Sequence record: PP174317.1
Reading direction: 5' to 3' (one strand)
DNA: 64,000 nucleotides
Source: Acinetobacter phage vB_AbaSt_W16
Notes under the pieces: generated by a model
Database searches by the model: none
Told to the model about the DNA's origin: nothing
What the model saw: only the letters and a program-made list of their open reading frames with translations
Shown: piece after piece, positions 35,163 to 58,548 of the stretch
Layout: every line of letters starts with the position of its first letter
How positions within the stretch are numbered: position 1 is the first letter of the stretch
Position numbers and translations under genes: made by a program

Positions 35163-35411
35163 TCAATTTTGTTGGGTATGTGCGTGTTTTAAAACAATAG
35201 AGTTAATATCCATAGCCAAATCAAAAGGAATTATCACTGTTGCACCAGGACCGGCCGCCAAAAGAGTATTTCGCAAATTATAGAATGGCTTAAATGCATA
35301 CCATGTATTTCTGGCAAAATCATTCTCATGATTGCCAGACGTCCATGCATTATGAATTAATTGCATCAATTGAATTAAATTTTCATATGTTAAATTCATT
35401 TTAAGACTCAA
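35163..35411 (-). CDS. hypothetical protein
   Basis: 82-aa ORF. Confidence 0.35.
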   Translation of the reverse strand: MSLKMNLTYENLIQLMQLIHNAWTSGNHENDFARNTWYAFKPFYNLRNTLLAAGPGATVIIPFDLAMDINSIVLKHAHTQQN

Positions 35412-36736
35412 ATAAAATACACATTTGTTCTTGCTCTTGTGCAGCCAACATATAACAACTGTTGTGCTAAGGCGGCGTCTGCTTTATGCATGCAAGAAGT
35501 ATACAAAAATACAGAATCAACTGTTGAACCTTGTGATTTATGAACAGTTCCCACCGGTAACGCTTTAACTTTCAAGAAACTATTACGTAATTTCCACCAA
35601 TCTTTCCAATTTGGTTTTGGGCCGTGTCCTTTCATTGCTTTAAATTCTGATGCCGCACGGGATAAGTAGAACTGAAATTTATTTTGTTCTTGCTCATCTG
35701 AAATTACTTGGATTGTTGCGACCATATCAGAATCGACGCCTCTAACATCTAGGGCCCAAGCTTTAATTGGTAATTTTTCTGCAAAAGTTTTGATTTCCAG
35801 ATTAACTGTAATTTCTTTACAGTCATGAATGCGCGCTAATTCACCATTATTAAAAATAGTTTCTGTAAACTTTTTACCTTCAAATGAGTGTGTCTTAATT
35901 AAAGGTTCTTGCATTACTAAAACTTCATGTTTAATAAATGGCAATTCAGTTTGATATAAACGCTTACGAATAATAGCATTTAAAGAATCAACTGATTTAT
36001 TTGTATATGCTAACATACGATTATCAAAAAGCGCATCTGCGTCTGGAACAATTTCAAAATACTTTTGCATAAAGTTTGCAACAGATTTTCCAGGGGCATT
36101 TAAATTATGCACTCCGGCACCATCAACAAGATTTTCACGAATCCATGAACCATTACGAATTTCGGTCGCAACTTTAATAATTGGAGCATTTGAACGCATA
36201 ACTTCTGTTAAGTTTGCTTGAACAAAATGTTCATTAAAAAAGAATGCAGACAATTCAGGAATGGATGAACCTGGGGCAACCGGGCGGATTTGTGCAATAT
36301 CACCAAGTCCAATAATTGTACACCAACGTGGCACGGATGTCATTAAAATACGGAATAATTCACGATCATACATTGACACTTCATCACAAATTAATACACG
36401 ACATTCACTAAGATCAGGCGCATCAGATTGTTCAAATGATGTTTGATCTTCATAATTTGTCGGACTAATTTTAAGTAATGAATGGATTGTATGAGCATCC
36501 ATTCCGGCAAGCTTTGAAAGAATTTTCTTGGCCTGGTGTGTAGGTGCAGCAAGCATAACACCCTTTTCACCCGAATCAATTAAATGATTAATTAAAAATT
36601 TTGTTAAAGTTGTTTTACCTGTACCAGCTGGACCATTAATAGTAATATGCTTACCTTGCGTTTGCATTACTTCTAAAGCAGCATTAAATGCTTGTTTTTG
36701 TCCTTCATTCAAGTCATCAAATGTTAAATCGTTCAT
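35408..36736 (-). CDS. dda: Dda DNA helicase (SF1B)
   Basis: LTFDDL.EGQK.AFN, H.TINGPAGTGKTTLTKF, LAAPTH.AKKILSKL, CRVLICDEVSMYDR and QLLYVG.TR are colinear with T4 Dda. Confidence 0.92.
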   Translation of the reverse strand: MNDLTFDDLNEGQKQAFNAALEVMQTQGKHITINGPAGTGKTTLTKFLINHLIDSGEKGVMLAAPTHQAKKILSKLAGMDAHTIHSLLKISPTNYEDQTSFEQSDAPDLSECRVLICDEVSMYDRELFRILMTSVPRWCTIIGLGDIAQIRPVAPGSSIPELSAFFFNEHFVQANLTEVMRSNAPIIKVATEIRNGSWIRENLVDGAGVHNLNAPGKSVANFMQKYFEIVPDADALFDNRMLAYTNKSVDSLNAIIRKRLYQTELPFIKHEVLVMQEPLIKTHSFEGKKFTETIFNNGELARIHDCKEITVNLEIKTFAEKLPIKAWALDVRGVDSDMVATIQVISDEQEQNKFQFYLSRAASEFKAMKGHGPKPNWKDWWKLRNSFLKVKALPVGTVHKSQGSTVDSVFLYTSCMHKADAALAQQLLYVGCTRARTNVYFI

Positions 36737-36791: not shown

Positions 36792-37094
36792 TTAAATGAC
36801 GCTAACCTTTCTAACATGTAAAGTTTTTAATTGTTGGTTCAACTGCTTTCGTTGGTAATCGGGTAAAGGAAGAGGTTTAACTTCTTCAACAACTTTTTTA
36901 AAGAACCCTTTGCGCATTGTTTTATAAACAATTTTTGGATGAAGTATTGCGTCTATACTTTCTTTAAGTTCTTCCAAGCGTTCTTTTGCTTTACCTTCAT
37001 TTGGGTAAATGGTAAATTCACCATATTCAGTTAAAGGCAATTCATACCCATCTGTATCTTTATAATAAACAGTATATCCAATATGCTGTGACAT
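36792..37094 (-). CDS. hypothetical protein
   Basis: 100-aa ORF. Confidence 0.35.
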   Translation of the reverse strand: MSQHIGYTVYYKDTDGYELPLTEYGEFTIYPNEGKAKERLEELKESIDAILHPKIVYKTMRKGFFKKVVEEVKPLPLPDYQRKQLNQQLKTLHVRKVSVI

Positions 37095-37095
37095 A

Positions 37096-37461
37096 TTATT
37101 TCTCCTGGAACTGTGGAATATTATTTAAAGTAATTACAAAGTTTTCACGAATAATTTTTTCAACTTGACGTTGGCATTCTTCGTGCACCATGTCTTCGAT
37201 ACGGGTTTTATTAGAAGCCCAATGACCACGATCTTTATTAATTAAATCATTAAGATGTGATTTAATAGTTTGATTAACAATTCTATCAATTGTCTGATGA
37301 ATATTGTTAGCTTTAAACAATTGTTCTACACGTTTCTTAACTTGCTCGCGAGTAATTTCCTGGTACATTTCCATCATTTCACCGCGAGTAATATTATGAC
37401 CCGCCATAAGATTTTGAATGTGTCGTTTTACAATTGCAATTGTATCAATAGGATTAGTCAT
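37096..37461 (-). CDS. hypothetical protein
   Basis: 121-aa ORF. Confidence 0.35.
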   Translation of the reverse strand: MTNPIDTIAIVKRHIQNLMAGHNITRGEMMEMYQEITREQVKKRVEQLFKANNIHQTIDRIVNQTIKSHLNDLINKDRGHWASNKTRIEDMVHEECQRQVEKIIRENFVITLNNIPQFQEK

Positions 37462-37463
37462 GG

Positions 37464-37889
37464 TTATTTCTCCATCATTTCATTAATTTTGCGCCATAAT
37501 TCTGTTGTTTTGCCACCATTTTTATCTGGATGCATAACAAAACGAATTCGCTTAAGTTCATCATATGAAAACTCATTTTTACCAACAGGTTTAAATGAGT
37601 TTTCTGTTTTAATATACTCATCTTTAATGCCTTTATGAGATAACACTGCTTTATATTTTATAAGAAGCTTATTATAATCCTCTACATTTGCATTATGTTT
37701 TTTAACAATACGATTATTTTCTCGTAGAGACGCATTGTATAATTCCTTCAAAGCCTTACGATTACGCACAACATTATTGTATTCTTCAATTCGATACGCA
37801 TGCCGTTTACATTCATTCATATATAAAACATAAAATCCAGCAGCAATACCCAATCCAAGTACAAACATTAAACTACCAAAAACATCCAT
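37464..37889 (-). CDS. membrane-anchored J-domain protein (DjlA-like architecture)
   Basis: N-terminal TM helix (LMFVLGLGIAAGFYVLYM) and a C-terminal minimal J-domain (YDELKRIRFVMHPDKNGGKTTELWRKINEMME) with the HPD motif. Confidence 0.55.
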   Translation of the reverse strand: MDVFGSLMFVLGLGIAAGFYVLYMNECKRHAYRIEEYNNVVRNRKALKELYNASLRENNRIVKKHNANVEDYNKLLIKYKAVLSHKGIKDEYIKTENSFKPVGKNEFSYDELKRIRFVMHPDKNGGKTTELWRKINEMMEK

Positions 37890-37899
37890 ATCGATTTCC

Positions 37900-38880
37900 T
37901 CAGATGTGGTTATTGAGTAAATTATAACCTGTTTTATGTTTAAGCAACTTAACTATTGATGTAGATAATGGTAATCCATATGCAATCTTTTCATAGTCTG
38001 TTGCAGAAAGATTTTCAAACCGAATTAGCGCAGGCTTAATCAATTTTAAATCTTCAATAATCTCTCGTTGACGCTGAATGTCTGCATATAATTTATCAGA
38101 TTTGTCTTTATATGCATCAAGTTGTTTAGTTATAGTTTCAACTTCACTCATAGCAACGTCTTTATATGCAGCTGAGGTTGTCACACGTAACCCTTTAACA
38201 AACTTAGCTAAGAATGTTTTTTGTGCATTAATAATAACTTCTTGACTTTTCAACTTGAGTTCAATTCTACCATTGGCTTTAGTTAAGTGCTGCTTTTCAG
38301 CTTTAGATGTTTTAGGATGAAGAATTTTCATCGTATTCTTATCAATAAGGGCTTGACGTTCACCTAATTTTAGTTGGGCCGCAACTAAATTATTAATGGC
38401 ACGACGATATTTGTCACACTTATGTGCAGGAATAATATATTTTTTAATTAAAACTTGCTCTTTTTTACAAACATGTTTACTTTCATCTAATGAATTAAGA
38501 CGAATATTTGTATCATAAATTGTACGTTCAAGTTCCATTAGAGCATGTTCAATTGATGTAATTTTATCAATACGATATTGAATTTCATTATCAATAGTTT
38601 CACTTGTTAAATTATTACGCAATGAATTATATTTCTTCATCACAGGTACAACGTTACCATTAATATAGCCTTTATCATTATCGATACGTTCCATCGTCAT
38701 CTTTTCTTCTTCGATGGTATCAGAAAAAGGTAAACCTGTATAAGCACAATGAGTTTGCAATTTCATATTAATAAATGCTTGTAAAGATAAAGTAAACTCG
38801 AGTTTACGTCGAGTTGCATCTTTTTTCTTTGCAATATAGCATTCAGCGAATTTAATATTCTGTTCTACAGTAGTAAACAT
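37900..38880 (-). CDS. coiled-coil protein with degenerate HNH-like N-terminal segment
   Basis: The track ORF begins at a TTG; the ATG start is MFTTVEQ at 38880. The N-terminus contains ERIDNDKGYINGNVVPV..KYN, reminiscent of an HNH core lacking the His and Cys ligands; the rest is coiled-coil. Confidence 0.4.
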   Translation of the reverse strand: MFTTVEQNIKFAECYIAKKKDATRRKLEFTLSLQAFINMKLQTHCAYTGLPFSDTIEEEKMTMERIDNDKGYINGNVVPVMKKYNSLRNNLTSETIDNEIQYRIDKITSIEHALMELERTIYDTNIRLNSLDESKHVCKKEQVLIKKYIIPAHKCDKYRRAINNLVAAQLKLGERQALIDKNTMKILHPKTSKAEKQHLTKANGRIELKLKSQEVIINAQKTFLAKFVKGLRVTTSAAYKDVAMSEVETITKQLDAYKDKSDKLYADIQRQREIIEDLKLIKPALIRFENLSATDYEKIAYGLPLSTSIVKLLKHKTGYNLLNNHI

Positions 38881-39019
38881 GGCAATATACTCATTTGTTG
38901 ATAAAGCAATAATACACAAAAGATAAGATTATGTAAACCTTTAATAATTCGTTTGAATATTTTTTAACCAATCAATAAATGCAAAACTCGCTTTTCATAA
39001 AAAGTGTGTTATATTAGAT

Positions 39020-39025
39020 ATAATG
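39020..39025 (+). promoter_or_regulatory. candidate -10 hexamer (TATAAT) of a plus-strand mini transcription unit
   Basis: TATAAT lies 18 nt upstream of a GGGGGAG Shine-Dalgarno and a 15-codon ORF. Confidence 0.3.
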
Positions 39026-39056
39026 CCCGGGCGGCCAGCCCAGGGGGAGATTATAT

Positions 39057-39104
39057 ATGTCAGGAATGAATATAAGAGGCGTAGCCTCCGTCCGTAGGAC
39101 GTAA
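39057..39104 (+). other. 15-codon plus-strand ORF (MSGMNIRGVASVRRT) with strong SD
   Basis: GGGGGAG sits 7 nt upstream of the ATG; the island is GC-rich and contains two internal hairpins (gagg-cgtag-cctc, cgtcc-gta-ggacg). Confidence 0.3.
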
Positions 39105-39127
39105 TTTAATGATTTAAATGTAATAAA

Positions 39128-39150
39128 AAAGGACGCTCATGCGTCCTTAA
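39128..39150. terminator. bidirectional rho-independent terminator
   Basis: aaggacgc-tcat-gcgtcctt hairpin flanked by an A6 run and a T5 run. Confidence 0.6.
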
Positions 39151-39153
39151 TTT

Positions 39154-39597
39154 TTATAAGTATAAAACAACAATACCAACATCAGGTGTAACATCCTGGA
39201 TAATCTCCGCGATTTCTTCCCAGTTGCCACCTGCAATGCCAGCACCAATTTTTGGAATACCCAATACTTTCCCTTTATAATCAACGTTCAGCTTCGTGAA
39301 TAATTCACGAATGTTTGCATATAGCTGGTCACGTGGGCATTTGCCAGGTCGATATTGTGTATATCCATTAATAATGTCGCCATAAACTGTAGTGGCTACA
39401 GAGTAATCACCTAATTTACCCCAATCACTGTATTCAGTTCGTTTATCAGCCTCAACTGCAACTGGGAATCGTCTTGCTATTTCTCCTGCTATTCCGGCTC
39501 CCATTGTATGGAAACAATTACAACCGTGGACAATTGCATCAAAATCGGAATGTTCAAAAGAATCTAACAAATTATGTTGTACATAATACTTAATCAT
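39154..39597 (-). CDS. macro domain protein (ADP-ribose binding / ADP-ribosyl hydrolase family)
   Basis: 147 aa; FDAIVHGCNCFHTMGAGIAGEIARRFP and LGIPKIGAGIAGGNWEEIAEII correspond to the two glycine-rich ADP-ribose-binding loops of macro domains. Confidence 0.7.
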   Translation of the reverse strand: MIKYYVQHNLLDSFEHSDFDAIVHGCNCFHTMGAGIAGEIARRFPVAVEADKRTEYSDWGKLGDYSVATTVYGDIINGYTQYRPGKCPRDQLYANIRELFTKLNVDYKGKVLGIPKIGAGIAGGNWEEIAEIIQDVTPDVGIVVLYL

Positions 39598-39603
39598 TGT
39601 TTA

Positions 39604-39849
39604 TTATCCACCTAGGGCCAATAAACCTAATGCTTGTTTAATTAAATTAATCGCAACATCAGGTTCAATAGTGCCTGTTAATACACCAATAACAGCAGCT
39701 AAACCTGCAACACCAATTGCACCAAGGCTTAATGTTGCACGTGGGTTCTTGCTAAAGTTATCTTTTACTTTTTTAATAGCTTCTTTAGCCATTATATTCT
39801 TCCTCGTAAGCTTCACGCGCATCGGAAACTTCTTGACCTTGTAGTACAT
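39604..39849 (-). CDS. small protein with hydrophobic C-terminus
   Basis: 81-aa ORF; the likely start is the internal MAKEAI. Confidence 0.3.
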   Translation of the reverse strand: MYYKVKKFPMRVKLTRKNIMAKEAIKKVKDNFSKNPRATLSLGAIGVAGLAAVIGVLTGTIEPDVAINLIKQALGLLALGG

Positions 39850-39976
39850 TCAAGCATACACCTAAGTTAGCATATTCCTCTGAGTCATATGCATGTACTG
39901 CATCTAAAAGTGAACGCGCATGTTCAATTGTGACATGAAGAAATTCTAATTGTTCTTCGTTTAAATGAATAGACAT
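39785..39976 (-). CDS. hypothetical protein
   Basis: 63-aa acidic ORF. Confidence 0.3.
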   Translation of the reverse strand: MSIHLNEEQLEFLHVTIEHARSLLDAVHAYDSEEYANLGVCLNVLQGQEVSDAREAYEEEYNG

Positions 39977-39990
39977 AAGGTCTCTCCTAA

Positions 39991-40182
39991 TTATTTAACA
40001 CGTGAAAAATATTTGCCCAAAACTGCTTGGTTATTTGAATTAACAGGAACCCAAATTTGTGAACCAATTGGATGTACAATGGACCCTTTATAAATTAGTG
40101 GGGTGTGACATTCCCAACATTCTACAGTAATTGTTGAAAGACGAGTTATAGCCGCTCGCCATTCATCTTCAAGACTGCTCAT
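39991..40182 (-). CDS. hypothetical small Cys-containing protein
   Basis: 63 aa with a CWEC..H motif. Confidence 0.3.
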   Translation of the reverse strand: MSSLEDEWRAAITRLSTITVECWECHTPLIYKGSIVHPIGSQIWVPVNSNNQAVLGKYFSRVK

Positions 40183-40228
40183 AATTTAACCTTTTAAATA
40201 TAATAAATATTTTAAAAAAACTTAAAAT

Positions 40229-40636
40229 TTACCCATACCACCGATGTTTAATCGGAAGCTCTCCTGCCGATTGCGCAAGATATTTATTTAAAATATCGGA
40301 TACTTTCATTGTTGATCTTTCATGATAACACTCACGAAGTCGGCAAATACTTGCGCCTAATGCATCTCGCTCTCGAGTTTGTCTGTACAAAGTTTCAAAA
40401 GATTGTTGATGTTCATGCATAATCTTTTTCAATTGACTTTCAATATAAACACTATTACCTCGACGTAAACGGTAACGGTTTAATTCTGTAATCTTTTTGG
40501 CCAATCGAGCTATACGCACTTCTGTTTTATGAATTTCTTCCTTTACATTTTTAAGTTTAAATGTAAATCCATCAATCATTTCGCGGACCAAGAATTTTTT
40601 AGTGTCAATTTGAATCACATGAGCTTTATCAAACAT
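40229..40636 (-). CDS. hypothetical protein
   Basis: 135-aa basic ORF. Confidence 0.4.
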   Translation of the reverse strand: MFDKAHVIQIDTKKFLVREMIDGFTFKLKNVKEEIHKTEVRIARLAKKITELNRYRLRRGNSVYIESQLKKIMHEHQQSFETLYRQTRERDALGASICRLRECYHERSTMKVSDILNKYLAQSAGELPIKHRWYG

Positions 40637-41175
40637 TATAATTTCTCCAAATATTGCGTAAGAGTTTTAATTAGAAATTCTACATATTCCCAACGTTTAG
40701 GATTAATCCACAATGTTCCCGTTGCAGCATCAGCATCATAACAAGTTTCACCTTCAACAGGATATGATCGATTATATTCGATATTTTGTTCTACGGACCA
40801 ATCTTTTGCAATTTTGGCCCGCATATCATATGAAAGCTCAATTAAAGAGGCATAAAAACAAATACCTTCCATTAAGTCAAGTTCAGTTCCATCACTTAAT
40901 GCAAAATAGCCTGATTGATATCTTTCCCAATTTTTATGATTGAGTTCAATGTAATGAATGATATTTTGCTTATTTTCTAAAAGCATATTAAGGCGTTTAA
41001 TACACTCTTCTAATTGACTTTTTAAAGTAATATTCAAGGCAACAACAAGCTCTAAACCTTTAAACTCGCCTGTTAAAGGTACAACAACTGTATCACTAAC
41101 CCACTTGACTTCTTCAACATCCAAGTGAACATATACTTTTTCAGTTAAACCTAGTTTAGCTTTTGCTTTGTTCAT
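40636..41175 (-). CDS. YPxGG/LWxN-family protein (paralog 1 of 4), at the T4 modA/modB position
   Basis: 179 aa; shares the C-terminal motifs G[LI]C..., YP[IV]xG[GE]... and [TN][LI]W[LI]Nx.RW with the ORFs at 41177, 56345 and 57122. Confidence 0.45.
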   Translation of the reverse strand: MNKAKAKLGLTEKVYVHLDVEEVKWVSDTVVVPLTGEFKGLELVVALNITLKSQLEECIKRLNMLLENKQNIIHYIELNHKNWERYQSGYFALSDGTELDLMEGICFYASLIELSYDMRAKIAKDWSVEQNIEYNRSYPVEGETCYDADAATGTLWINPKRWEYVEFLIKTLTQYLEKL

Positions 41176-41176
41176 T

Positions 41177-41776
41177 TTAATCTTCCAATTTTTTAAGTAA
41201 GTTGGTGACGTATTCTAAACAGAATTCCACGTATAGCCAACGGTCTTGATTTAACCATAAAGTGCGAGTTTCACATTCTATTTCAAATTGCCATTGGCCA
41301 CCTGGAATTGGGTAAGACTCTTCAAATTCAATAGTTGTTTTCCGTTCAAATTCAAGATTTGAAACAAAATCTGCCGCCATTTTACTACGTAAATTTTTAC
41401 GTACACCATATAAGTCTACATTATCACAAAGACCTTCATCAAGACTAAATCGATACCATGCGTACGCATCAGGCTTTTCGTGAGGGCCTGCAGGCATTTG
41501 GATATCGGTCCATTGCGCAAGTTCTTCATCGGATGATTCATATGCATCTAATCCACTATCACGCCATGCAATAGCTTTTTCTTCAATTAAAGCCCGATTT
41601 TCTAAGACCCACTTTAGTTTGAAAATGATATTTTCAAGGTTTTCTTTATACGTAATATGACCATACGGAAGATAATCAATTTCGTCACTTGTAAACGATG
41701 TTGTGTCTTTAGGGTCACTTAAATATACGTCAATAATTTTAGTTTTGTAATAAACTTTGAAAGTTTTCTGTTTCAT
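41177..41776 (-). CDS. YPxGG/LWxN-family protein (paralog 2 of 4)
   Basis: 199 aa; carries YPIPGGQWQFEIECETRTLWLNQDRWLYVEF. Confidence 0.45.
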   Translation of the reverse strand: MKQKTFKVYYKTKIIDVYLSDPKDTTSFTSDEIDYLPYGHITYKENLENIIFKLKWVLENRALIEEKAIAWRDSGLDAYESSDEELAQWTDIQMPAGPHEKPDAYAWYRFSLDEGLCDNVDLYGVRKNLRSKMAADFVSNLEFERKTTIEFEESYPIPGGQWQFEIECETRTLWLNQDRWLYVEFCLEYVTNLLKKLED

Positions 41777-41820
41777 AACAATTCACTCACTATGGCTGAT
41801 GCTTATTATAATACGAAAAA

Positions 41821-41846
41821 AGGGAACCCATGTAAATAGGTTCCCT
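41821..41846 (-). terminator. rho-independent terminator
   Basis: agggaacc-catgtaaata-ggttccct hairpin preceded by an A-run. Confidence 0.5.
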
Positions 41847-41855
41847 AAAAATATT

Positions 41856-42377
41856 TTAATAAAATGGTGAATATTCGCCCGTATTTAAAAATAAACGAAG
41901 TTTCTTTAATACTTCAACTTCGCCTAATCGTGATCCCAGGTTGAAAATTGGAATATCATAATCAAATGCGATTCTTAAAGCCATTGCTGTACCACCGGTT
42001 AACTTTCCATCTGGTGTCCAACATACTACAAAATCTACTGGTGTTTTTAGATCATCGCCTAAAACAATTTGAGCATTCCGACCATGCATTTTACGAGCAG
42101 AGAAACTACATGCTTTCCAATTAGGATGATATTTTGCAGCAAAATCAATATGTCTTTGATACAATTCTGGTGTATCTGAATAAAATCCGTTATATCCTTG
42201 CCATGGTAACCATAAAACAGTAGATGACGGTGCACCGTCAAAGAAAGCTTTATCTGCGCCAATTGCACCGCCTGTATGACAAATGTGCCCCGCGGAATCA
42301 AGTTCTTTTGAAATTTGTCGCATGATTGCAAGAATATTCATTGGTGTTCGGCGACTGCCGATGCCAGCATAATTCAT
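41856..42377 (-). CDS. SLOG / DprA(Smf)-like Rossmann-fold protein
   Basis: GIGSRRTP...GHICHTGGAIGADKAF...LWLPWQGYNG...RNAQIVLGDD...VVCWTPDG..GGTAMALRIAFDYDIPIFNL follows the DprA/LOG nucleotide-binding core. A start at MNYAG gives an ATGA overlap with the upstream gene; the track ORF runs to 42461. Confidence 0.55.
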   Translation of the reverse strand: MNYAGIGSRRTPMNILAIMRQISKELDSAGHICHTGGAIGADKAFFDGAPSSTVLWLPWQGYNGFYSDTPELYQRHIDFAAKYHPNWKACSFSARKMHGRNAQIVLGDDLKTPVDFVVCWTPDGKLTGGTAMALRIAFDYDIPIFNLGSRLGEVEVLKKLRLFLNTGEYSPFY

Positions 42378-42634
42378 ACGATCTCCACATAAGTACACTT
42401 GTATTTTCGAGACCATAATCGCATCATTTGTGAAAGGTCTCTTGCACTCCATTTTCTCCAACTTGATGGCGAATTTAGTACAAAGTACATTTGGCCATTT
42501 TTATAATTTGAATATGAAGGATCACTTTTATGTAATTGAATTAATAAAACAGCAGAACCATCTGCATTAAGTTTAATACATTTACGATTCTTTTTACTTA
42601 ACATTGATGTAACACATTTCATAAACTTCTCCAA
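42374..42634 (-). CDS. hypothetical protein
   Basis: 86-aa basic ORF. Confidence 0.35.
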   Translation of the reverse strand: MEKFMKCVTSMLSKKNRKCIKLNADGSAVLLIQLHKSDPSYSNYKNGQMYFVLNSPSSWRKWSARDLSQMMRLWSRKYKCTYVEIV

Positions 42635-42638
42635 AAAT

Positions 42639-42662
42639 TAAAGGGACCAATTAGGTCCCTTT
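42639..42662 (-). terminator. rho-independent terminator
   Basis: aagggacc-aatt-aggtccctt hairpin; nearly the same sequence as the hairpin at 51411. Confidence 0.55.
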
Positions 42663-42664
42663 TC

Positions 42665-43168
42665 TTATAATACATCAGAAAGATATTGATATGGACCTAA
42701 AACAATTTTATCGCATTGTGTATCAAACTCACATGTATCAATAAAGTCGTCCCATTTTTCATCCATTAATTTAATAAAACCTTCTGGACTTCCGCGTCGT
42801 TTATAACGCTCAATGTATTCGCCTTTTAAAGATCGATCTGGATAAACAAGAACATATGGAATACCGACTTTTTGCATTTCCTCTCGGACTTCTGCATGGC
42901 TGGATACCATCACCAAATAATTATCGCCCGCGTGTCGATGAATAATTTCTCGCATGTGTTGGATATAATTGCCTGGAAATTCTGCTTTGTCAAAAGTTGA
43001 ACTATCCGAGTCATATACAAATGCATCGCCTGGGCCTGGGACCATACGGAAAATTGCTGTCCCATTTGCACGAACTGGATATAATCCATTCTTTGGTGCA
43101 TTACCATAAATTGATGATTTACCTGTACCTGGAAAGGCGCTAATAAATCCAATAGTTTCAATACGTTT
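42665..43168 (-). CDS. P-loop NTPase / kinase-like protein
   Basis: Walker A AFPGTGKSS and a candidate Walker B AFVYD. The start is probably the internal MKRIET; the track ORF runs to 43207. Confidence 0.5.
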   Translation of the reverse strand, partial: KRIETIGFISAFPGTGKSSIYGNAPKNGLYPVRANGTAIFRMVPGPGDAFVYDSDSSTFDKAEFPGNYIQHMREIIHRHAGDNYLVMVSSHAEVREEMQKVGIPYVLVYPDRSLKGEYIERYKRRGSPEGFIKLMDEKWDDFIDTCEFDTQCDKIVLGPYQYLSDVL

Positions 43169-43279
43169 CATATTATCCCCAAATCCAATAGCCGATACCA
43201 AGTCCAATTAAACCGAATGTCGAACATCCTGCAATAAATACCGCCAAACAAGCTGACGCAACACCGTCAATATTAAACA

Positions 43280-43468
43280 TTATGATGATCCTTTACGATT
43301 AATACCATATGATCGCAAAACTTTACTCGGGGTGACTTTCCATTCACGGGTTATACGCCACCCAAGACAAATATAAAGTTTCATAAATTTTCGAAGGACT
43401 AATGTTTTAACAATTAAATCACCTTCGGTTTTTGCCATTTCAACATATTCATTATCTTGCATAAGCAC
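43280..43468 (-). CDS. hypothetical protein
   Basis: 62-aa ORF. Confidence 0.3.
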   Translation of the reverse strand: MLMQDNEYVEMAKTEGDLIVKTLVLRKFMKLYICLGWRITREWKVTPSKVLRSYGINRKGSS

Positions 43469-43474
43469 CTCAAA

Positions 43475-43493
43475 AAGGGCCCGAAGGCCCTTA
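43475..43493 (-). terminator. rho-independent terminator
   Basis: aagggcc-cgaa-ggccctt hairpin preceded by an A-run. Confidence 0.5.
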
Positions 43494-43602
43494 TATCATT
43501 TTCCAAGTAAGCGCTTAGTGCGAGCAAAGCCTAATTCAAGAGACAACTTCATGGTTGCTTTTGGATCACGAATTTTACCGCGTTTAGAAGTATTAAATTC
43601 AG

Positions 43603-43905
43603 TTACTTGTACAGTTTCTTTCTTAGCCATGATTTCATGTCCTTTAAAATAGATTTAAGAGTAATTTCTCGAGATTCTAATATTTTATCAGAATAACGAA
43701 TAAAGATTTGTGTTAAAGATTCATTATCTTTAACGTCTAGGGAGAAACCCGCCTCCCAACCTGCGGGATAACTTACATCAAAAATATCATAAGAATTTTG
43801 AAGTAAATCATCAATTGCGTCATCAGTCAATGTTATTGTCTGATTTGAATTTTTCGAGTTCCGCATCTGCTTTTTCCTTAGCTCGCTGACTGTGCTCTTC
43901 AGCAA
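43603..43905 (-). CDS. hypothetical protein
   Basis: 100-aa ORF. Confidence 0.35.
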   Translation of the reverse strand: MLKSTVSELRKKQMRNSKNSNQTITLTDDAIDDLLQNSYDIFDVSYPAGWEAGFSLDVKDNESLTQIFIRYSDKILESREITLKSILKDMKSWLRKKLYK

Positions 43906-43974
43906 GTAGGATGCCTAACGCAATCGGTAATCCTATTATGCCACAAAGAAATCCAAAAGCGAGAATAGTGCCTA

Positions 43975-44283
43975 TCACAATTCAATTCCAAAAAGACCGC
44001 CACAACGATTATCGGAATTGAATTCTTCCAATTCGAAATACATATTTTCCCATGTAGGAATTTCCATTTGTAAATCGGCGACTTCAACCCATTCGCCTAC
44101 TGTATCCCATGCATCTCCATTTGGAAATACTGCATCACCTTTTGATGCAAATGCATGAATTTTACCATCTTTGTCAATTGCAACAGCAACTGTTTCTTCA
44201 GGCACATACAGCGTTTCAACCTCAAAAGGTTTAATGTAATGCATGTTTAACAAAATATGCGCAGGTTGAAAAGTTTTTAACAT
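43975..44283 (-). CDS. hypothetical protein
   Basis: 102-aa acidic ORF; its 5' leader is duplicated upstream of the next gene. Confidence 0.4.
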   Translation of the reverse strand: MLKTFQPAHILLNMHYIKPFEVETLYVPEETVAVAIDKDGKIHAFASKGDAVFPNGDAWDTVGEWVEVADLQMEIPTWENMYFELEEFNSDNRCGGLFGIEL

Positions 44284-44324
44284 GATAATTTACTCACATT
44301 ATGTTGATTTGATAAGATCATTTA

Positions 44325-44365
44325 TACACTTTGTGTTAATTATATAATCATTAACACAAAGTGTA
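44325..44365. repeat. 16-bp perfect inverted repeat with TATATAATC spacer
   Basis: tacactttgtgttaat-tatataatc-attaacacaaagtgta. Confidence 0.6.
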
Positions 44366-44384
44366 AATTATTTTAAAGACTTTT

Positions 44385-44741
44385 CTAAATGTCTTTCGAT
44401 TGCAACGTATCTGTCCAATCTAATGTATCAAAGTCCACGTTTACAAAAGTGAAAACACTATTTGACAGATCTAAATACTTGTCCACATCAGAGTCTGACC
44501 AAATACCTTCCGACAATATTGCCGAAGGCTCATTTTCATAGGCTCGCCATCCTCCCAATTGATCCATCGCTACAAAGTGATAATTTTCTGGAATTTTAGT
44601 CCAGTCAATCAAAATTTTAGAATTGTCCAATTTACATATAAAATTATTGACAATAAGTTCAACTTCTTTACCGTGAAAATTATTAAACTCACTTAATGTT
44701 TCTTCAAGTGATACTTTGATTTGTGCGATTGAAAATTTCAT
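44385..44741 (-). CDS. hypothetical protein
   Basis: 118-aa ORF. Confidence 0.4.
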   Translation of the reverse strand: MKFSIAQIKVSLEETLSEFNNFHGKEVELIVNNFICKLDNSKILIDWTKIPENYHFVAMDQLGGWRAYENEPSAILSEGIWSDSDVDKYLDLSNSVFTFVNVDFDTLDWTDTLQSKDI

Positions 44742-44811
44742 AACCTTTTACTCATCGTTGATTTGATAAGATCATTATATAATAGTTAAATTATAAAGTA
44801 CACACTTATTT

Positions 44812-45156
44812 TTAACTATTTTCCATTGCAATAATGGCGTTTACCCATTTTTTACACATTAAAGAATGACTTAATTTAGATAATTTTGTTTCTCTCCATC
44901 CGTCTCGTATATGTTTACGAGCATCACTTTTACGTACAACTCGTTCCATATAATTAAAACCTAAACCTTTACAAAGCTCAACATATTCATGTTTAGGTTC
45001 CCAATGTTTAGGTAAAAGAGTTGGATACACTTCAATATTATCCAAATACATCTTAACAAAGGCAGTATGATCCGCATCTTTAACTTCATCTACGGACAAA
45101 ATCATTTTATTAATGTCTTCACCAAGTAATTCTGCGAGTGATTTAATCTTGCTCAT
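44812..45156 (-). CDS. hypothetical protein (paralog of 45582..45857)
   Basis: EYVELCKG...RKHIRDGWRETKLSKLSHSLMCKKW is shared with the ORF at 45582. Confidence 0.4.
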   Translation of the reverse strand: MSKIKSLAELLGEDINKMILSVDEVKDADHTAFVKMYLDNIEVYPTLLPKHWEPKHEYVELCKGLGFNYMERVVRKSDARKHIRDGWRETKLSKLSHSLMCKKWVNAIIAMENS

Positions 45157-46371: not shown

Positions 46372-46896
46372 TTAGTAACCCCGGTCTTGACGAGCAAAGT
46401 TTTCAGCATTTTTAATGAAGTAGCCTTCAAAAATATCTTCAGAAGTAAGACCTAACGCAATGTTCATGTTCAAGAAGAAATGCCATAAGTCTATAATTTC
46501 AAAGAAGATTTCACGACGATCATCAGCAGAAAGATCTTCAAGTTTTGTATTACGCATATCTAAGTTTTTGGCACGCCATGCTTTCCATACAGAAGTCGCT
46601 GCGGATTCGCCATTAGACATACCACCAAACGATGTAAGCAATTCACGGAATTCGTCACTCATTGAGTCCCATTGTGTACGCATCCAATCAACGGCTTGAC
46701 CTGCAGTTTCGATTTCATTTGGATTTAAGTTCATTTCAGGTTTTTCTTTTGCAAGTTTAACTTGTAATGAACGTTGCATTTGCATCATAATATCAAGATA
46801 TTGTTCGCCATTAGAACGGATGCCTTCAGCTGCATTACGCGCTTGTTGAGTTGCTTCGTCTGTAACTAATTGTGCGCAAGCGTTAAATTGTGCCAT
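46372..46896 (-). CDS. 56: dCTP pyrophosphatase (dCTPase) gp56
   Basis: MAQFNACAQL, MQMQRSLQVKLA, ETAGQAVDWMRTQ.D...DEFRELLTS, LNM..LG...E.IF..Y..KN.ENFARQDRGY are colinear with T4 gp56. Confidence 0.88.
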   Translation of the reverse strand: MAQFNACAQLVTDEATQQARNAAEGIRSNGEQYLDIMMQMQRSLQVKLAKEKPEMNLNPNEIETAGQAVDWMRTQWDSMSDEFRELLTSFGGMSNGESAATSVWKAWRAKNLDMRNTKLEDLSADDRREIFFEIIDLWHFFLNMNIALGLTSEDIFEGYFIKNAENFARQDRGY

Positions 46897-46949: not shown

Positions 46950-47264
46950 TTAAATTTTGAAAAGCGGTTTAAATACAATATTTCTATTTTTTAAACCATC
47001 TTCAGACACTGATTGTATTTCGAGGGGATCGCCATTTAAAATACGGCTAAGAATTTTAGTTTCTTCCGACCAGGACTCCGATTGAACTGGTAAAAATTCT
47101 AAGGCCCAATCAATCCAATTTCGCACATGTTTGGCATCAATGGACCATTCTAATATAGCATTATGGACAGTATTGCAAACTTGACGTTTTGATTCCGTCG
47201 AGTTATACATTAAATGTTTGCTATATTCAATTTCACTGGCTATAATTTGAATACGAATTGTCAT
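46950..47264 (-). CDS. hypothetical protein
   Basis: 104-aa ORF. Confidence 0.35.
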   Translation of the reverse strand: MTIRIQIIASEIEYSKHLMYNSTESKRQVCNTVHNAILEWSIDAKHVRNWIDWALEFLPVQSESWSEETKILSRILNGDPLEIQSVSEDGLKNRNIVFKPLFKI

Positions 47265-47470
47265 TTGTTGGCCTCAAACGGTATAAGTTCTATGCCTTCT
47301 CTTTTATACATCCGTAATGCATGGCGTAACCCTCTTGCATTACAAAGACCTGGATATATTGTGAATCCAAATATAGGAGATTGCTTATCCATCCGCATTT
47401 TCACATCTACTGTACCGTCTTCATTAAGTCTGACTAACTTTGCATCTTTTCTTGAAAGCATTGAAATCAT
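47261..47470 (-). CDS. hypothetical protein
   Basis: 69-aa ORF. Confidence 0.3.
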   Translation of the reverse strand: MISMLSRKDAKLVRLNEDGTVDVKMRMDKQSPIFGFTIYPGLCNARGLRHALRMYKREGIELIPFEANK

Positions 47471-47478
47471 TTTATTAC

Positions 47479-47808
47479 CTATTTTAATGGATGCATTGTA
47501 ACAGTAGCATGAGTTTCTGACGCATTGGTAAACACATATTTGGCTTCAGCTTCTAAGAATACATATGTATTCTTATCCGTTTCTACTGTTAATTTAGAAA
47601 TATTTTCATAGTCTAATGATATTAATTTATCTTGATGATCGGGCAAGTTAAGAAGATTTACAGTAAATTTCATCTCATCAAATCCATGAAATTCACCATA
47701 ATCACTCACATTAGTTGTGATATTTTTAATTGAGATTTCAGCTGGTTCAAATTTAACTGAGCCTTCATCACCCATATATCCAAATTCAATTTCAATTTGC
47801 ATCTTCAT
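47479..47808 (-). CDS. hypothetical protein
   Basis: 109-aa ORF. Confidence 0.35.
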   Translation of the reverse strand: MKMQIEIEFGYMGDEGSVKFEPAEISIKNITTNVSDYGEFHGFDEMKFTVNLLNLPDHQDKLISLDYENISKLTVETDKNTYVFLEAEAKYVFTNASETHATVTMHPLK

Positions 47809-50352: not shown

Positions 50353-51393
50353 TTAAATTTTCCTATATTTCATCATACGAACTTTAGCCATTAACCCTGA
50401 TGCATAGTTATTAAGAATATAATCTTCAATCTGTTCAGGTGTCGCACCATCTTTAACAATCATATCATTAATATCTTTAGATGGCCACGGCGCAGAATCC
50501 CAAAAACAAACGTTTTCTCCTGCATCAATAAGAGATTGCATACGTTTAAGAGTGTCTTCATGTCGGCATTCATTATCCATAACCCATATGCGATTGCCTT
50601 CATATGGGACCTGGTCCAGACTTAATTTACCACCTGTAATCGCACATGCATTTGATAAAAATAAACTGTCGAGTGGACCTTCTAACATTAATACTGGTTT
50701 CGATTCATCGACTGTATCTTGGCCATAAATTTTTGTCGATTCTTCATCGACTTTAATAGTTATATATTTTACGCGTGATTCTTTAAGTGCTCTTCCTTGA
50801 AAAGATTCGATTTGACCATCTTTATTAAAAATCGGAATGACTAATCGATACTCAGGCATTACTTTTGCAAATGTACCGGGTTTAACTTTATTACAAAGCT
50901 CTTGCCATTGCGATGTAAACCATAATCGATTATACTTTTCAGTGGGAATCTTTCGAGCTTCAACATACTTAATAATTGGATGGGATTTTGGTAAAGTATC
51001 CAATCGTTGACAATAATCCAATTTTTCAATATGTTTTACTACGTCAGCCTTTTTAGGCTGAACATATAATTCTTTACCTGGTTGTGTGTATCGATTATTA
51101 GTTTTATGTGCACCCTCTTTAAACTGCGCCATTTGGTAATTTTTAAATGCATCTTCATCATATTCACGTAAAAACATACCAAAGCTATTTGAATAATCAC
51201 AGTTATAGCAGTGAACGAATTTTGTACCCTTATGTTCATAATACCAAAATCGAGCCATAAAAGCATCTTTTGCTGAGTCCCCACACACAGGACAACTACA
51301 ATTTAATTTAAGGGGCATTGCTCCTACTTGTTTAAAGTTTCTCTGTAAAGAGAAATATTGCAATGCGTATTCATCATCAATAAAACTACTCAT
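50353..51393 (-). CDS. 61: DNA primase gp61
   Basis: Zinc ribbon CPVCGDS...HCYNC, Toprim (LEGP.DSLF), RVWVLDNE.RH.DT and NDMI..G.TPEQI are colinear with T4 gp61. Confidence 0.92.
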   Translation of the reverse strand: MSSFIDDEYALQYFSLQRNFKQVGAMPLKLNCSCPVCGDSAKDAFMARFWYYEHKGTKFVHCYNCDYSNSFGMFLREYDEDAFKNYQMAQFKEGAHKTNNRYTQPGKELYVQPKKADVVKHIEKLDYCQRLDTLPKSHPIIKYVEARKIPTEKYNRLWFTSQWQELCNKVKPGTFAKVMPEYRLVIPIFNKDGQIESFQGRALKESRVKYITIKVDEESTKIYGQDTVDESKPVLMLEGPLDSLFLSNACAITGGKLSLDQVPYEGNRIWVMDNECRHEDTLKRMQSLIDAGENVCFWDSAPWPSKDINDMIVKDGATPEQIEDYILNNYASGLMAKVRMMKYRKI

Positions 51394-55860: not shown

Positions 55861-56334
55861 TCATTTAAACCATTTTGGTGGATTACGTTTAGACCACTTT
55901 GCAAGATGTGCTTTTTCATTTGAATACAAGCTACGATAATGTTTAACTGCATTTTGATAATGAATTTTGCCTGGCATAACTGCTACAAATTCAGTTAATT
56001 TATTTTTACCCCCGGGAATACGTTCGATTGAATCAATAAGTTCAGGAATTAAACGAGAACTCGCATGTACTTTTCCATAACGATGCGTGTATTCGGCAAA
56101 TAATTCAATAACCAAATTTAATAAGTATTCAAAATTTTGGCGAGATTCCATAACCCAAAGTACGCTTGGATGATTTTTATGTGTTGCTTTATATAAAGTT
56201 TCACTTTCAATTCCATTTAAACGACATACAGTAGAAAGAATTTGGCAATATTCGACACACATTTTAACAACGTGTTTATCACAATGTGCTTGTGCATTGA
56301 AAGATGGATTCACATCAAAAAGAAAAATATTCAT
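55861..56334 (-). CDS. hypothetical protein
   Basis: 157-aa ORF; the N-terminal MNIFLFDVNPSFNAQAHCDKHVVKMCVEYCQ looks like a conserved domain I cannot name. Confidence 0.4.
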   Translation of the reverse strand: MNIFLFDVNPSFNAQAHCDKHVVKMCVEYCQILSTVCRLNGIESETLYKATHKNHPSVLWVMESRQNFEYLLNLVIELFAEYTHRYGKVHASSRLIPELIDSIERIPGGKNKLTEFVAVMPGKIHYQNAVKHYRSLYSNEKAHLAKWSKRNPPKWFK

Positions 56335-56344
56335 ATTAAATTAC

Positions 56345-56887
56345 TCACTTAAATTTTGTAAATGTAATCAAACGGATTACACGGTCACATTCCGAGATTA
56401 GAAAATCAACTGCGTTCCAACGAGCGTTATTAAGCCATATTGTACCACGTCTTGATTCATGATCAAACTCTCTTTTACCTCCAATTGGATATGCAAGTTG
56501 GCCATAATGACAATTCCAACCGTCAAAAGCATCGCGAGTTTGTTTGGCTAAAGCTAATCGGTGCAAAGGAACTGCACCGCAAATACCGCGAGATAACGAT
56601 ACGGTATTTTCTAAGCTTTTAATATAAACGCGATATGATTTTTTATCATGTCTTACAGAGCATTCCTGTAAAATATCTTTAGCTTGAACTAAAGATACTA
56701 ATTGTGTTTTAAGAGCTTCCATTTCGGCAACTGTTATACAATCAATACCATATAACTTAATTTCCGTATTTCGCATTGTTTTTGCACGATATCGTGTATA
56801 TGAACCATCATATTTTTCAATGGATTGTAAAATATAAACTTCTCCACGGTACAAAACTTTTGTACCTAATGGTATTTTGTCATACAT
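56345..56887 (-). CDS. YPxGG/LWxN-family protein (paralog 3 of 4)
   Basis: RGICGAV...YPIGGKREFDHESRRGTIWLNNARW. Confidence 0.45.
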   Translation of the reverse strand: MYDKIPLGTKVLYRGEVYILQSIEKYDGSYTRYRAKTMRNTEIKLYGIDCITVAEMEALKTQLVSLVQAKDILQECSVRHDKKSYRVYIKSLENTVSLSRGICGAVPLHRLALAKQTRDAFDGWNCHYGQLAYPIGGKREFDHESRRGTIWLNNARWNAVDFLISECDRVIRLITFTKFK

Positions 56888-56925
56888 TTCAATTTACTCA
56901 TTATTAATTGATATAATCTATAATA

Positions 56926-56951
56926 CTAAAAAACCAGGGTTATGTACATAA
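56926..56951 (-). terminator. rho-independent terminator (TGTACA-loop family)
   Basis: accagggttatg-taca-taaccctggt hairpin preceded by an A-run. Confidence 0.55.
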
Positions 56952-57121
56952 CCCTGGTCCTTATTTTTAACCTAAAATATTGTATTTGGTTAACAATTGA
57001 TCAATAATCAAATACCATCCTATAGGAGGAAATAAAACTGCACCTAATGTCCACCAAAATCCTTTGGCGATAACAATACCTGCAATATAAACAATAAATG
57101 CAAAAAGTCTAACTAATGCGC

Positions 57122-57592
57122 TCATATTTTATCCCTTTTACGTAAAGTGTCGATTGTGCTTAAAACATTTTCCATTGACGCTTTCATATAACGTGCCAGG
57201 CTAATGCGACGAGGGTTTAACCATAAGTTTAGTTCATCTTGCGGTCGTGTACCATATTCATTTTGCCCGCCCACTGGATAAACCGGACTATATTCTGGAT
57301 TATATTCAGGCCATTCTGATATTAATTTATATTTTAATGTACCAAATGTAATATCGGCCGCATAACATAACCCATCTTCTTTGGGTTTAATTACTAAACG
57401 ACTTTCACCCAATACTACAACATGATGATTGGTATTTTGCAATTCATCTAAATTATCTAAGATGACATTAATTTTACGGATTGCAATTGGTAAATATTTA
57501 ACAAAATAATCCAAACGAGCTGGATCGTGATGCTGAAGATATTCAATGTATTCTGTTGAAGTCATTTTTTGTATATATTCAGGCATAGTCAT
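57122..57592 (-). CDS. YPxGG/LWxN-family protein (paralog 4 of 4)
   Basis: DGLCYAAD...YPVGGQNEYGTRPQDELNLWLNPRR. Confidence 0.45.
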   Translation of the reverse strand: MTMPEYIQKMTSTEYIEYLQHHDPARLDYFVKYLPIAIRKINVILDNLDELQNTNHHVVVLGESRLVIKPKEDGLCYAADITFGTLKYKLISEWPEYNPEYSPVYPVGGQNEYGTRPQDELNLWLNPRRISLARYMKASMENVLSTIDTLRKRDKI

Positions 57593-58548
57593 AACTGATC
57601 GTCCATATGCATAATAAGTTTATCTGAATCACGAGCAAGAATAAATTTATCAACATAAATCCCATCATACATTCGTGATACCAGGTCATAATTTTCCCAA
57701 GCAAACTGTCTAAACCAACCGCTTGTTATTGAAGTACAAACTTTTTCTAGAGCCATATCAAAAGCTTGACGCGGGTTAACTTTAAAGTCGCTTGGAATAA
57801 GCACACGTTCCAATGCAAGCACGTACGTTTCTTCTAACACACCAAGCAATTGAATCTCACGAGGTTGTGCAAAAAACTTTTCACGTGAACTTTTGACTTC
57901 TTGATTATATTCCATATAATGCGTATAAGCAGGTTTAGCTAAAACTTTAACTGCATCATGAAGTGAATCGTGATCATACACATACGCAAAATTTGAGGTA
58001 AAGAAATCTGCTTTACTTACATTCAGCTTAGGATGTGAATAATCATAAGTTTCTTTTTCGCGCAACTTTAACCAGGCTTCATCATAAACCTTTGCGCCAA
58101 TTTTTTGTAGATTGCGAATAGTCACCATCGTCTTTCTAAAGTGAGGTGAATTCTTAAGATATCGATGGGACCATTTCAACATGAACAACACATCTAATGG
58201 GGCAACTTTACAAATCACACCATTAATAGTTGTGTATTCTTTCCAATAAGATGAAATCAACAATAAATCTGATGTGCTTGTGTCATCGTTATGATCAAGA
58301 GGATACGTAATCTCAAAAATCTTGCCATCACATTTAAATGCTTTTGTATGTGTATTGAATTTTTTAGAGGTTATATTAACCAATGGTGTAATTTCAATCG
58401 CATTTTCTTGAATTACGCTACTGATACCTTTTGCATCATATTCATCTTGTACAATAAGATCATAATCTTTAGGCACAATATTATGCACAATTTCCATTTT
58501 ATCAAGATGGTATGCGAGTGCTGCAGAACCAATTAAAAGAGGTCTCAT
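57589..58548 (-). CDS. hypothetical protein, possible nucleotidyltransferase-like N-terminus
   Basis: 319 aa; the N-terminal LLIGSAALAYHL...DYDLIV loosely resembles the GS..D.D pattern of nucleotidyltransferases. Confidence 0.35.
   Translation of the reverse strand: MRPLLIGSAALAYHLDKMEIVHNIVPKDYDLIVQDEYDAKGISSVIQENAIEITPLVNITSKKFNTHTKAFKCDGKIFEITYPLDHNDDTSTSDLLLISSYWKEYTTINGVICKVAPLDVLFMLKWSHRYLKNSPHFRKTMVTIRNLQKIGAKVYDEAWLKLREKETYDYSHPKLNVSKADFFTSNFAYVYDHDSLHDAVKVLAKPAYTHYMEYNQEVKSSREKFFAQPREIQLLGVLEETYVLALERVLIPSDFKVNPRQAFDMALEKVCTSITSGWFRQFAWENYDLVSRMYDGIYVDKFILARDSDKLIMHMDDQL

Follow-up and report, generated by a model that had tools for sequence, protein, structure and literature searches.

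Do a macrodomain gene, a SLOG gene and a P-loop kinase gene that lie close together in a phage genome also work together? The question is raised by a minus-strand run of genes in Acinetobacter phage vB_AbaSt_W16 (PP174317.1), of which a stretch of 64,000 nucleotides was analysed (the window). An earlier note on this DNA had read positions 39154-43207 as a module of enzymes acting on ADP-ribose or nucleotides, standing in place of modA, modB and srd of phage T4. The minus-strand open reading frames (ORFs) are where that note had put them, and all three of its fold assignments held under profile and structure tests; none of the three proteins turned out to have an unrelated fold. The reading we prefer, with belief and doubt in about equal parts, is that of a loose accessory or counter-defence cluster in the variable gp56–srd interval, with genes inherited independently and no fixed multi-enzyme operon. 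The macro gene adds a member to the Tk.4/AdfM-Adpp family, for relatives of which a counter-defence role has already been published, and it is the sole gene here for which a mechanism can be named. What we observe in this phage are folds, homology, gene distribution and gene order; from these we infer the enzymatic activities given below.

Predicted transcription units and gene order

Two T4-like phages of the genus Zedzedvirus (Straboviridae), Acinetobacter phages ZZ1 and Henu6, match the DNA at ~98% identity over 4.5 kb around the candidate cluster. The T4 landmark genes dda (35411-36727), gp56 (46375-46896) and gp61 (50356-51393), together with a dda.1/Y01A-like gene, are present in the window and place the cluster in the early region, within a 7.4-kb srd–gp56 interval. 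The genes of the cluster, their paralogs, the terminator-like hairpins and the srd homolog all lie on the minus strand.

The macro, SLOG and kinase genes fall into three predicted hairpin-delimited units. A terminator-like hairpin with a U-tract follows the macro stop (39129-39148; -13.2 kcal/mol, z -6.3), another marks the boundary between the SLOG gene and two paralogous genes (41821-41846; -16.2 kcal/mol, z -4.7), and a third lies between the kinase gene and an 82-aa ORF (42640-42662; -15.3 kcal/mol, z -2.9). The earlier note had described a single run bounded by terminators. That description needs correction because the stable U-tract hairpins at 42662-42640 and 41846-41821 lie inside the run. 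The hairpin taken as its outer boundary, upstream of a 62-aa ORF that precedes the kinase gene (43475-43492; -12.6 kcal/mol), has a z of only -1.6. A promoter-like sequence, TTTACA-17-TATTAT, overlaps the hairpin at 41821-41846. MotA-box middle promoters gave 11 pattern matches in the window against 8.4 expected, none of them inside the cluster region. An Rfam scan of positions 37000-45000 found no match near the gathering scores.

Gene order was compared across Acinetobacter T4-like phages and is given here in the direction of transcription through the gp56–srd interval. ZZ1 has 56, kinase, o86, SLOG, two paralogs, a 135-aa ORF, three small ORFs, macro and srd. Acj9 has 56, kinase, SLOG, then, with other genes interspersed, a paralog, and finally s63a, s62, macro and srd. 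Kimel-like and AbTZA1-like phages carry SLOG, further genes, s63a, s62, macro and srd, and no kinase. Ac42 swaps the first pair (56, SLOG, kinase, further genes, srd) and has no macro gene nearby. Phage 133 has 56, s63a, kinase, further genes and srd, with neither SLOG nor macro. Acj61 has 56, further genes, s63a, macro, kinase and srd, its SLOG gene lying elsewhere beside a NARP1-like pair. Apart from Acj61, macro and SLOG genes share the interval at distances of 2.3 to 7.7 kb, with differing genes between them. Among Acinetobacter phage records, 91 carry the macro gene, 74 the SLOG gene and 19 the kinase gene.

Macro, SLOG and kinase have thus been gained, lost and reordered independently within a variable gp56–srd interval, and across these genomes the three were neither inherited nor located together as a set. 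A fixed module is not supported, in view of the separate predicted hairpin-delimited units and of the independence of presence and order among Acinetobacter T4-like phages. Neither SLOG nor kinase is a constant partner of macro; that part falls to srd and two small ORFs: the order s63a, s62, macro, srd is kept in ZZ1, Kimel-like, AbTZA1-like and Acj9 phages. In the window s62 (39604-39792) is a small hydrophobic ORF of 62 aa (phrog_37935, 2.1e-37) and the constant upstream neighbour of macro; s63a (39785-39976) encodes 63 aa (phrog_4305, 1.6e-22) and is conserved beside macro in Acinetobacter T4-like phages.

The claim that T4 modA, modB and srd had been replaced stood in part. Neither the window nor the rest of the ZZ1 genome yielded a homolog of modA or modB. 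An srd homolog, however, sits immediately downstream of the macro gene (37900-38919; phrog_1400 Srd 1.3e-63; T4 Srd 8e-21; annotated as Srd in ZZ1), and ZZ1 retains three tandem Alt-like ADP-ribosyltransferase (ART) genes at 125.8-130.1 kb (125770-130066). We rejected the replacement of T4 ART genes as a functional argument, since srd is present, ZZ1 keeps its Alt-like ARTs and sister phages differ in the makeup of the interval. Taking the modA/modB position within a variable region is no evidence of functional analogy.

Several further features of the setting were recorded. The non-coding gap of 234 nucleotides between the macro stop and the srd start (38920-39153) holds three stable hairpins, at 39148-39129, at 39089-39075 and, GC-rich, at 39044-39026, and a promoter-like TTTACA-17-TATTAT at 38937-38909, with no Rfam match. 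A 141-aa ORF (37464-37889) begins with a hydrophobic segment and has, towards its C-terminus, the stretch HPDKNGG, which resembles the HPD motif of J-domains; it matched nothing in Pfam or PHROG. Elsewhere in ZZ1, the stretches 67681-68405, 77205-77660, 125770-130066 and 135288-135821 hold vs and the ORF ZZ1p0139, a gp57B-like gene annotated as 'RNA ligase', the three Alt-like ARTs and a Nudix hydrolase.

The macrodomain protein

The macro gene (39154-39597) encodes 147 aa. Its product matches Pfam Macro (PF01661) at 29.5 bits against a cutoff of 22 (7.6e-7), residues 23-133 covering profile positions 1-118. Both glycine-rich ADP-ribose-binding loops, HGCNCFHTMGAGIAGE and PKIGAGIAGGNW, can be read in the translation, as the earlier note had seen, and in the family alignment NCFHTMGAGIAGE and PKIGAGIAGGNW are invariant. 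The protein belongs to phrog_335 (4.8e-53), the T4 Tk.4/AdfM family of Poa1p-like/DarG-like macrodomains, and aligns with T4 Tk.4 from end to end at 37% identity (residues 1-145 vs 1-149; E 1e-29). Members of this family were found in 2,534 phage records; the gene adjoins vs in T-even phages. T4 too has this macro gene (tk.4), at another locus. ZZ1 has vs as well, but ZZ1p0139, the ORF that occupies the place of tk.4 there, does not encode a macrodomain.

In PADLOC and NCBIfam the top match was DarG (DarG 1.1e-7 and antitoxin_DarG 1.9e-6, respectively), with only the macro part covered. Sequence matches in the PDB were yeast Poa1p (6lfu, 2.7e-7) and the DarG macrodomain of Mycobacterium tuberculosis (5m3i, 9e-5). 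In a family comparison the identity of the protein was 39% with Tk.4 and 35-36% with members linked to NARP1 (Cilsick, phage EM). A simple neighbour-joining tree groups it with Tk.4, and both have a YTQ motif, which reads YGQ in the NARP1-linked clade.

Relatives on both sides of this family have been characterised. According to a 2025 preprint, tk.4 is the single T4 gene required to resist DarTG2, and it was renamed adfM; its knockout sensitises T4 to DarTG2, and the phenotype is DarTG2-specific. A 2026 paper reports that AdfM of PhiKZ (gp104) strips DarT2-made ADP-ribose off single-stranded DNA (ssDNA) in vitro. Poa1p-like macro proteins of NARP1 operons (Adpp) dephosphorylate ADP-ribose-1''-phosphate (ADPR-1''P) and counter aRES, and the family member of Vibrio phage Gary is a proven ADPR-1P phosphatase. 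The earlier note had suggested counter-defence, against DarT among others, which fits the later experiments on the homologs Tk.4/AdfM and PhiKZ AdfM.

Vibrio phage Cilsick shows an Adps-macro-Namat arrangement. Homologs of Adps or Namat were found neither in the window nor in the whole ZZ1 genome, and the macro gene does not lie within or beside a NARP1 operon. Because the ZZ1-type genome holds no Adps or Namat genes, a NARP1-linked Adpp role would be without its partners here, and for the same reason we favour an AdfM-like role, as far as sequence can tell. It is very likely that the gene corresponds, in an Acinetobacter phage, to adfM of T4. By analogy with its homolog Tk.4, the protein would be a DarG-like 'orphan antitoxin' that stands alone. 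Phage DNA modified by the host DarT2 toxin would have its ADP-ribose removed by hydrolysis, and replication could then proceed. The main alternative substrate would be ADPR-1''P, as for the phosphatase of the sister Adpp clade.

The SLOG protein

The SLOG gene (41856-42380) encodes a stand-alone DprA-like protein of 174 aa (phrog_768). Its Rossmannoid SLOG fold agrees with the DprA/LOG-type assignment in the earlier note, with the likeness on the DprA side. GxGSR and SGGAxGAD are DprA-like motifs, and 30 of 44 homologs match DprA, weakly. The protein itself reaches 16.7 bits with Pfam DprA (PF02481), below the cutoff of 29.6, and consists of the core only, the DprA accessory domains being absent. 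LOG phosphoribohydrolases have the catalytic motif PGGxGTxxE. This motif was not found in the protein; the corresponding stretch reads LTGGTAMALR, without the Glu, and the family consensus is GGTGQAxRIA.

The family occurs in ~1,450 phage records. Its commonest neighbours in 80 viral loci, as we read their sequences, look like an SF1-type helicase, DNA polymerase, an exonuclease, dUTPase and a GMP-reductase-like gene. A SLOG gene adjoins a NARP1-like pair in Acj61 and in locus L053. Iyer et al. (2022) place most viral SLOGs in a clade related to nicotinamide adenine dinucleotide (NAD). The SLOG protein most likely binds or processes a nucleotide, and a ligand derived from NAD or ADP-ribose is our leading guess.

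The P-loop kinase

The third protein, of 168 aa (42665-43171; phrog_4182), combines a Walker A motif with a kinase-type core and a lid, so the Walker-A NTPase of the earlier note is upheld as a P-loop kinase fold. It could not be placed in a named kinase family (Pnk/AAA_33, deoxynucleoside monophosphate (dNMP) kinase, NRK): matches to AAA_18, AAA_33 and AAA_24 were below threshold and came from a minority of homologs. NCBIfam gave no match, and there was no sequence match in the PDB. The protein would be a small kinase of a phage-specific family.

That family has ~235 phage records, T5-like and jumbo phages among them. Its neighbours include an NAD-dependent DNA ligase (7 of 80 loci), Mre11/Rad50-type genes and ThyX. 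Neither the SLOG nor the kinase gene has a constant partner, and the commonest neighbours of both are genes of replication, repair and nucleotide metabolism. T5-like Epseptimavirus has members of phrog_4182, and so do phages with uracil DNA (PBS1, phiR1-37, Staphylococcus S6/PALS_2); on one contig (L123, 9336-10423) the ThyX stop overlaps the kinase start. The overlap and the occurrence in uracil-DNA phages hint at a nucleotide-kinase role.

Distant homologs of the kinase lie on contigs of 395 kb and 594 kb, with no macro or SLOG gene nearby. On the larger, a JGI contig (L248, 6001-8238), the homolog lies 1.5 kb upstream of a DUF4326 gene; Iyer et al. (2022) connect DUF4326 with fusions that involve SLOG, Macro and NADAR. 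A search for fused domains in longer relatives of the SLOG and kinase proteins gave only DUF7220 and weak DprA matches.

Co-location in other phages

To look beyond the lineage, IMG/VR loci were sampled with flanks of ±10 kb, 80 loci per family. SLOG-centred loci held a macro gene in three cases and a kinase gene in two; kinase-centred loci held macro and SLOG genes in three cases each. Eight macro-centred loci held a SLOG gene, three of them from Acinetobacter, and three held a kinase gene. Since ~40% of macro-bearing records also carry SLOG, and a 20-kb window is ~13% of a 150-kb genome, co-location by chance is expected in ~5%. A SLOG gene lay within 10 kb of macro in 5 of 76 non-Acinetobacter loci, about our estimate for chance. 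In STP4-a, CF-SP2 and vB_VmeM-32 the two genes are 46-70 kb apart.

The earlier note had proposed a neighbourhood comparison, in which the genes might never co-occur outside this genome. Macro and SLOG do: they are adjacent in 161 phage records, and in Pseudomonas phage EM (Pakpunavirus) a NARP1-like pair stands beside them. One minus-strand run of EM (7247-12639) consists of RNA ligase, AAA_33 kinase, Prs-like, NAPRTase-like (554 aa), Macro, a 49-aa ORF and a DprA-like SLOG gene, in this order; we take the Prs-like gene and the NAPRTase-like gene to be the NARP1-like pair. The run has the appearance of a compact island of NAD/ADP-ribose and RNA-repair genes, and its Prs-like gene is annotated as 'baseplate protein'. 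A link between the RNA-ligase-adjacent AAA_33 kinase of EM and the window kinase was considered and rejected, as the two are similar at the Walker A motif only.

In DNA viruses, Iyer et al. (2022) had found that Macro, SLOG, NADAR and Nudix domains co-occur in genomes, share neighbourhoods and are fused to one another, and had predicted roles against diffusible ADP-ribose derivatives. The earlier note did not recognise the combination as a described T4 module; the linkage of Macro and SLOG in viruses was described in 2022, and pairwise adjacency is found only in some lineages. SLOG and kinase genes associate with macro genes loosely and variably. They may land near macro-type genes because accessory and counter-defence genes pile up in the same islands, and the two proteins would act on their own. 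The locus would then consist of separately transcribed accessory genes in a variable early-gene interval of a ZZ1-type phage.

Paralogs and small open reading frames

Two members of a paralogous family lie between the macro and SLOG genes, one of 179 aa (40636-41175; phrog_11598/6323; phmmer against the other three copies 1e-13 to 2e-6) and one of 199 aa (41177-41776; phrog_11598). A third of 180 aa (56345-56887) and a fourth of 156 aa (57122-57592; phrog_6323, 3.6e-38) lie farther along the window. All four share the motifs GLC, YPxGG and LWxNxxR, and the four-member family of the earlier note is real; its core of ~80 aa reads GICxN...YPVGG...LWxNPxR. An exhaustive hidden Markov model search of 1.84 billion proteins found a small family, of 83 clusters at 50% identity. 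No relative was found in Pfam or the PDB, and a word-based homolog search with the 199-aa paralog returned its own cluster only. The other two copies share the stretch 55861-58548 with a Pyr_excise (DenV-like) glycosylase (55861-56334) and a DUF7277/DUF7275 protein (57589-58548).

Between macro and SLOG there are six ORFs in total, of which the two paralogs named in the earlier note are part. Besides s62 and s63a these include a 63-aa ORF without a family match (39991-40182), found only in ZZ1 among the loci searched, where Henu6 is ~98% identical, and a 135-aa ORF (40229-40636) with weak, sub-threshold matches of coiled-coil type (CENP-F leucine zipper, SMC). Upstream of SLOG, an 82-aa ORF (42374-42622; no family match) has a stop codon that overlaps the SLOG start codon, and translational coupling is therefore possible. 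A weak paralog of this ORF lies ~4.7 kb upstream (47264-47545; E about 2e-4). In sister phages the paralogs are placed elsewhere, mostly upstream of gp61. We read the two paralogs as bystanders, and the small ORFs too.

Alternative explanations

Several observations weigh against the reading as a loose cluster around an AdfM-like gene. T4-type hairpins can be leaky, and the genes do meet directly in pairs: SLOG and kinase in ZZ1, Acj9 and Ac42, in both orders; macro directly before kinase in Acj61 and locus L129; SLOG directly before macro in metagenomic contigs L208 and L219. The 161 phage records noted above, found with a fused macro+SLOG query, hold both genes within about 1 kb on one strand (the three that were sampled are all Pseudomonas phages). 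Of 80 SLOG loci, 8 have a Nampt/Namat-like gene no more than 10 kb away, compared with 2 of 80 kinase loci, and Macro-SLOG fusions were reported by Iyer et al. (2022). Direct pairwise adjacency in shifting combinations occurs more often than random placement would lead us to expect, and fits a shared pathway as well as an anti-defence island. For the macro protein itself, the evidence on T4 AdfM was obtained by genetics and published in a preprint. DarG and TARG1 carry their catalytic lysine in an FPTK motif. In an alignment that is modestly reliable at this point, the DarG lysine corresponds to the Gln of YTQ both in the macro protein and in T4 Tk.4, and the closest solved structure by sequence is a phosphatase, Poa1p; because of these two facts, DNA-glycohydrolase chemistry is not secured.

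The last two facts are also arguments for a macro protein that is an Adpp-type ADPR-1''P phosphatase instead of a DNA de-ADP-ribosylase; it would detoxify or recycle ADPR-1''P that comes from RES-type NADases (aRES) or from the removal of RNA 2'-phosphates. The proven phosphatase of Vibrio phage Gary, an identity to NARP1-linked members (35-36%) not far from that to Tk.4 (39%), and the RNA-repair enzymes RnlA, RnlB and PseT of ZZ1 point the same way. We nevertheless judge it unlikely: neither Adps nor Namat, which would consume the ADPR product, was found in the ZZ1-type genome, and the nearest characterised relative by YTQ motif and tree is Tk.4, with its DarTG2-specific knockout. Phosphatase and de-ADP-ribosylase activities need not be mutually exclusive, either. 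Somewhat easier to believe, if still short of likely, is that only the macro protein is concerned with ADP-ribose, the SLOG protein being a DprA-like ssDNA-binding protein, a recombination mediator or some other protein of nucleotide metabolism, the P-loop protein an extra (deoxy)nucleotide or polynucleotide kinase, and their proximity a matter of the shared variable early region. The DprA-like motifs, the replication and nucleotide genes around SLOG, the ligase, Mre11/Rad50-type and ThyX genes near the kinase and the presence of its family in PBS1, phiR1-37 and S6 would all suit this. It is harder to square with a SLOG protein that is a 174-aa Rossmann core without DprA accessory domains, with the NAD-related clade to which Iyer et al. 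(2022) assign most viral SLOGs, with macro or Nampt-like genes adjacent to SLOG in several lineages, and with a ZZ1 genome that already encodes gp1 dNMP kinase and PseT.

An integrated pathway, in which kinase, SLOG and macro act in sequence on one NAD-derived molecule or adduct, would be the opposite extreme. Non-homologous to NARP1-3, it might phosphorylate, cleave or exchange a ribosyl bond and dephosphorylate, so that an immune signal is destroyed or NAD+ is rebuilt. The recurring adjacency in shifting pairs, the EM gene order from Prs-like to SLOG, the SLOG gene beside a NARP1-like pair in Acj61 and L053, the phosphatase activity of Poa1p-like macro proteins within NARP1 operons and the division of labour that Iyer et al. 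(2022) predict among Macro, SLOG, NADAR and Nudix domains all speak for such a pathway. Yet hairpins and six unrelated ORFs separate the genes in the window, sister phages retain any one or two of the three, and most members of the kinase family (T5-like and jumbo phages) lack both partners within 10 kb, macro and SLOG each being present at 3 of 80 loci. The EM kinase is of a different family, resembling ours at Walker A only, the SLOG protein lacks the LOG motif PGGxGTxxE, and the tests done point to no single substrate. We consider the pathway improbable. A narrower version, which we regard as a long shot, would make the phrog_4182 kinase and the stand-alone SLOG an undescribed two-enzyme unit, joined in some phages by a Tk.4-type macro protein, that processes an ADP-ribose-derived molecule non-homologously to NARP1, NARP2 and NARP3. 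Such a unit would degrade an immune signal or salvage ADPR/NAD+, and its footprint would be the repeated relocation of the kinase beside SLOG or macro in Acinetobacter T4-like phages and on an unrelated metagenomic contig.

The loose cluster with an AdfM-like macro gene thus stays our preferred reading, and as such the locus is a further example of known categories and reveals no new system. The defence hotspots of Acinetobacter baumannii include DarTG; for this reason the macro gene may affect host range and bears on phage therapy against this species. Members of the SLOG and kinase families, which are uncharacterised, turn up in many phages, and their shifting adjacency raises the question of their place in the NAD/ADP-ribose arms race.

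Comparison with known systems

Compared with the SLOG proteins DprA, ShosA, LOG, YpsA and ThsA, the window SLOG is a core only, falls below the Pfam DprA threshold and lacks the LOG Glu motif; it has no ShosT- or ThsB-type partner. The window kinase shares Walker A, the core fold and lid-like Arg residues with the kinase domain of Clostridium thermocellum Pnk, adenylate kinase, the Trl1 kinase and the kinase domain of T4 PseT.

The Macro/SLOG neighbourhood of Pakpunavirus resembles the present locus in having both families on one strand in an early region, with a stand-alone SLOG that is DprA-like by Pfam. There, a single 49-aa ORF separates macro and SLOG and a NARP1-like pair abuts them, whereas the ZZ1-type locus has 2.3 kb, six ORFs and a hairpin between the two genes and no NAD-salvage genes. 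The window protein and Adpp of the NARP1-AP operons (Vibrio phage Gary; Cilsick-type) are both Poa1p-like macro proteins of one family; here Adps and Namat are missing and YTQ replaces the NARP1-linked YGQ.

T4 Tk.4/AdfM and PhiKZ gp104 are, like the window protein, single-domain phage macro proteins of about 150 aa. In T4 the gene adjoins vs/tk, and here it lies between small ORFs and srd. Tk.4 and the window protein have in common their membership of phrog_335, the loop motifs, YTQ, the match to DarG-like profiles and the lack of the DarG lysine.

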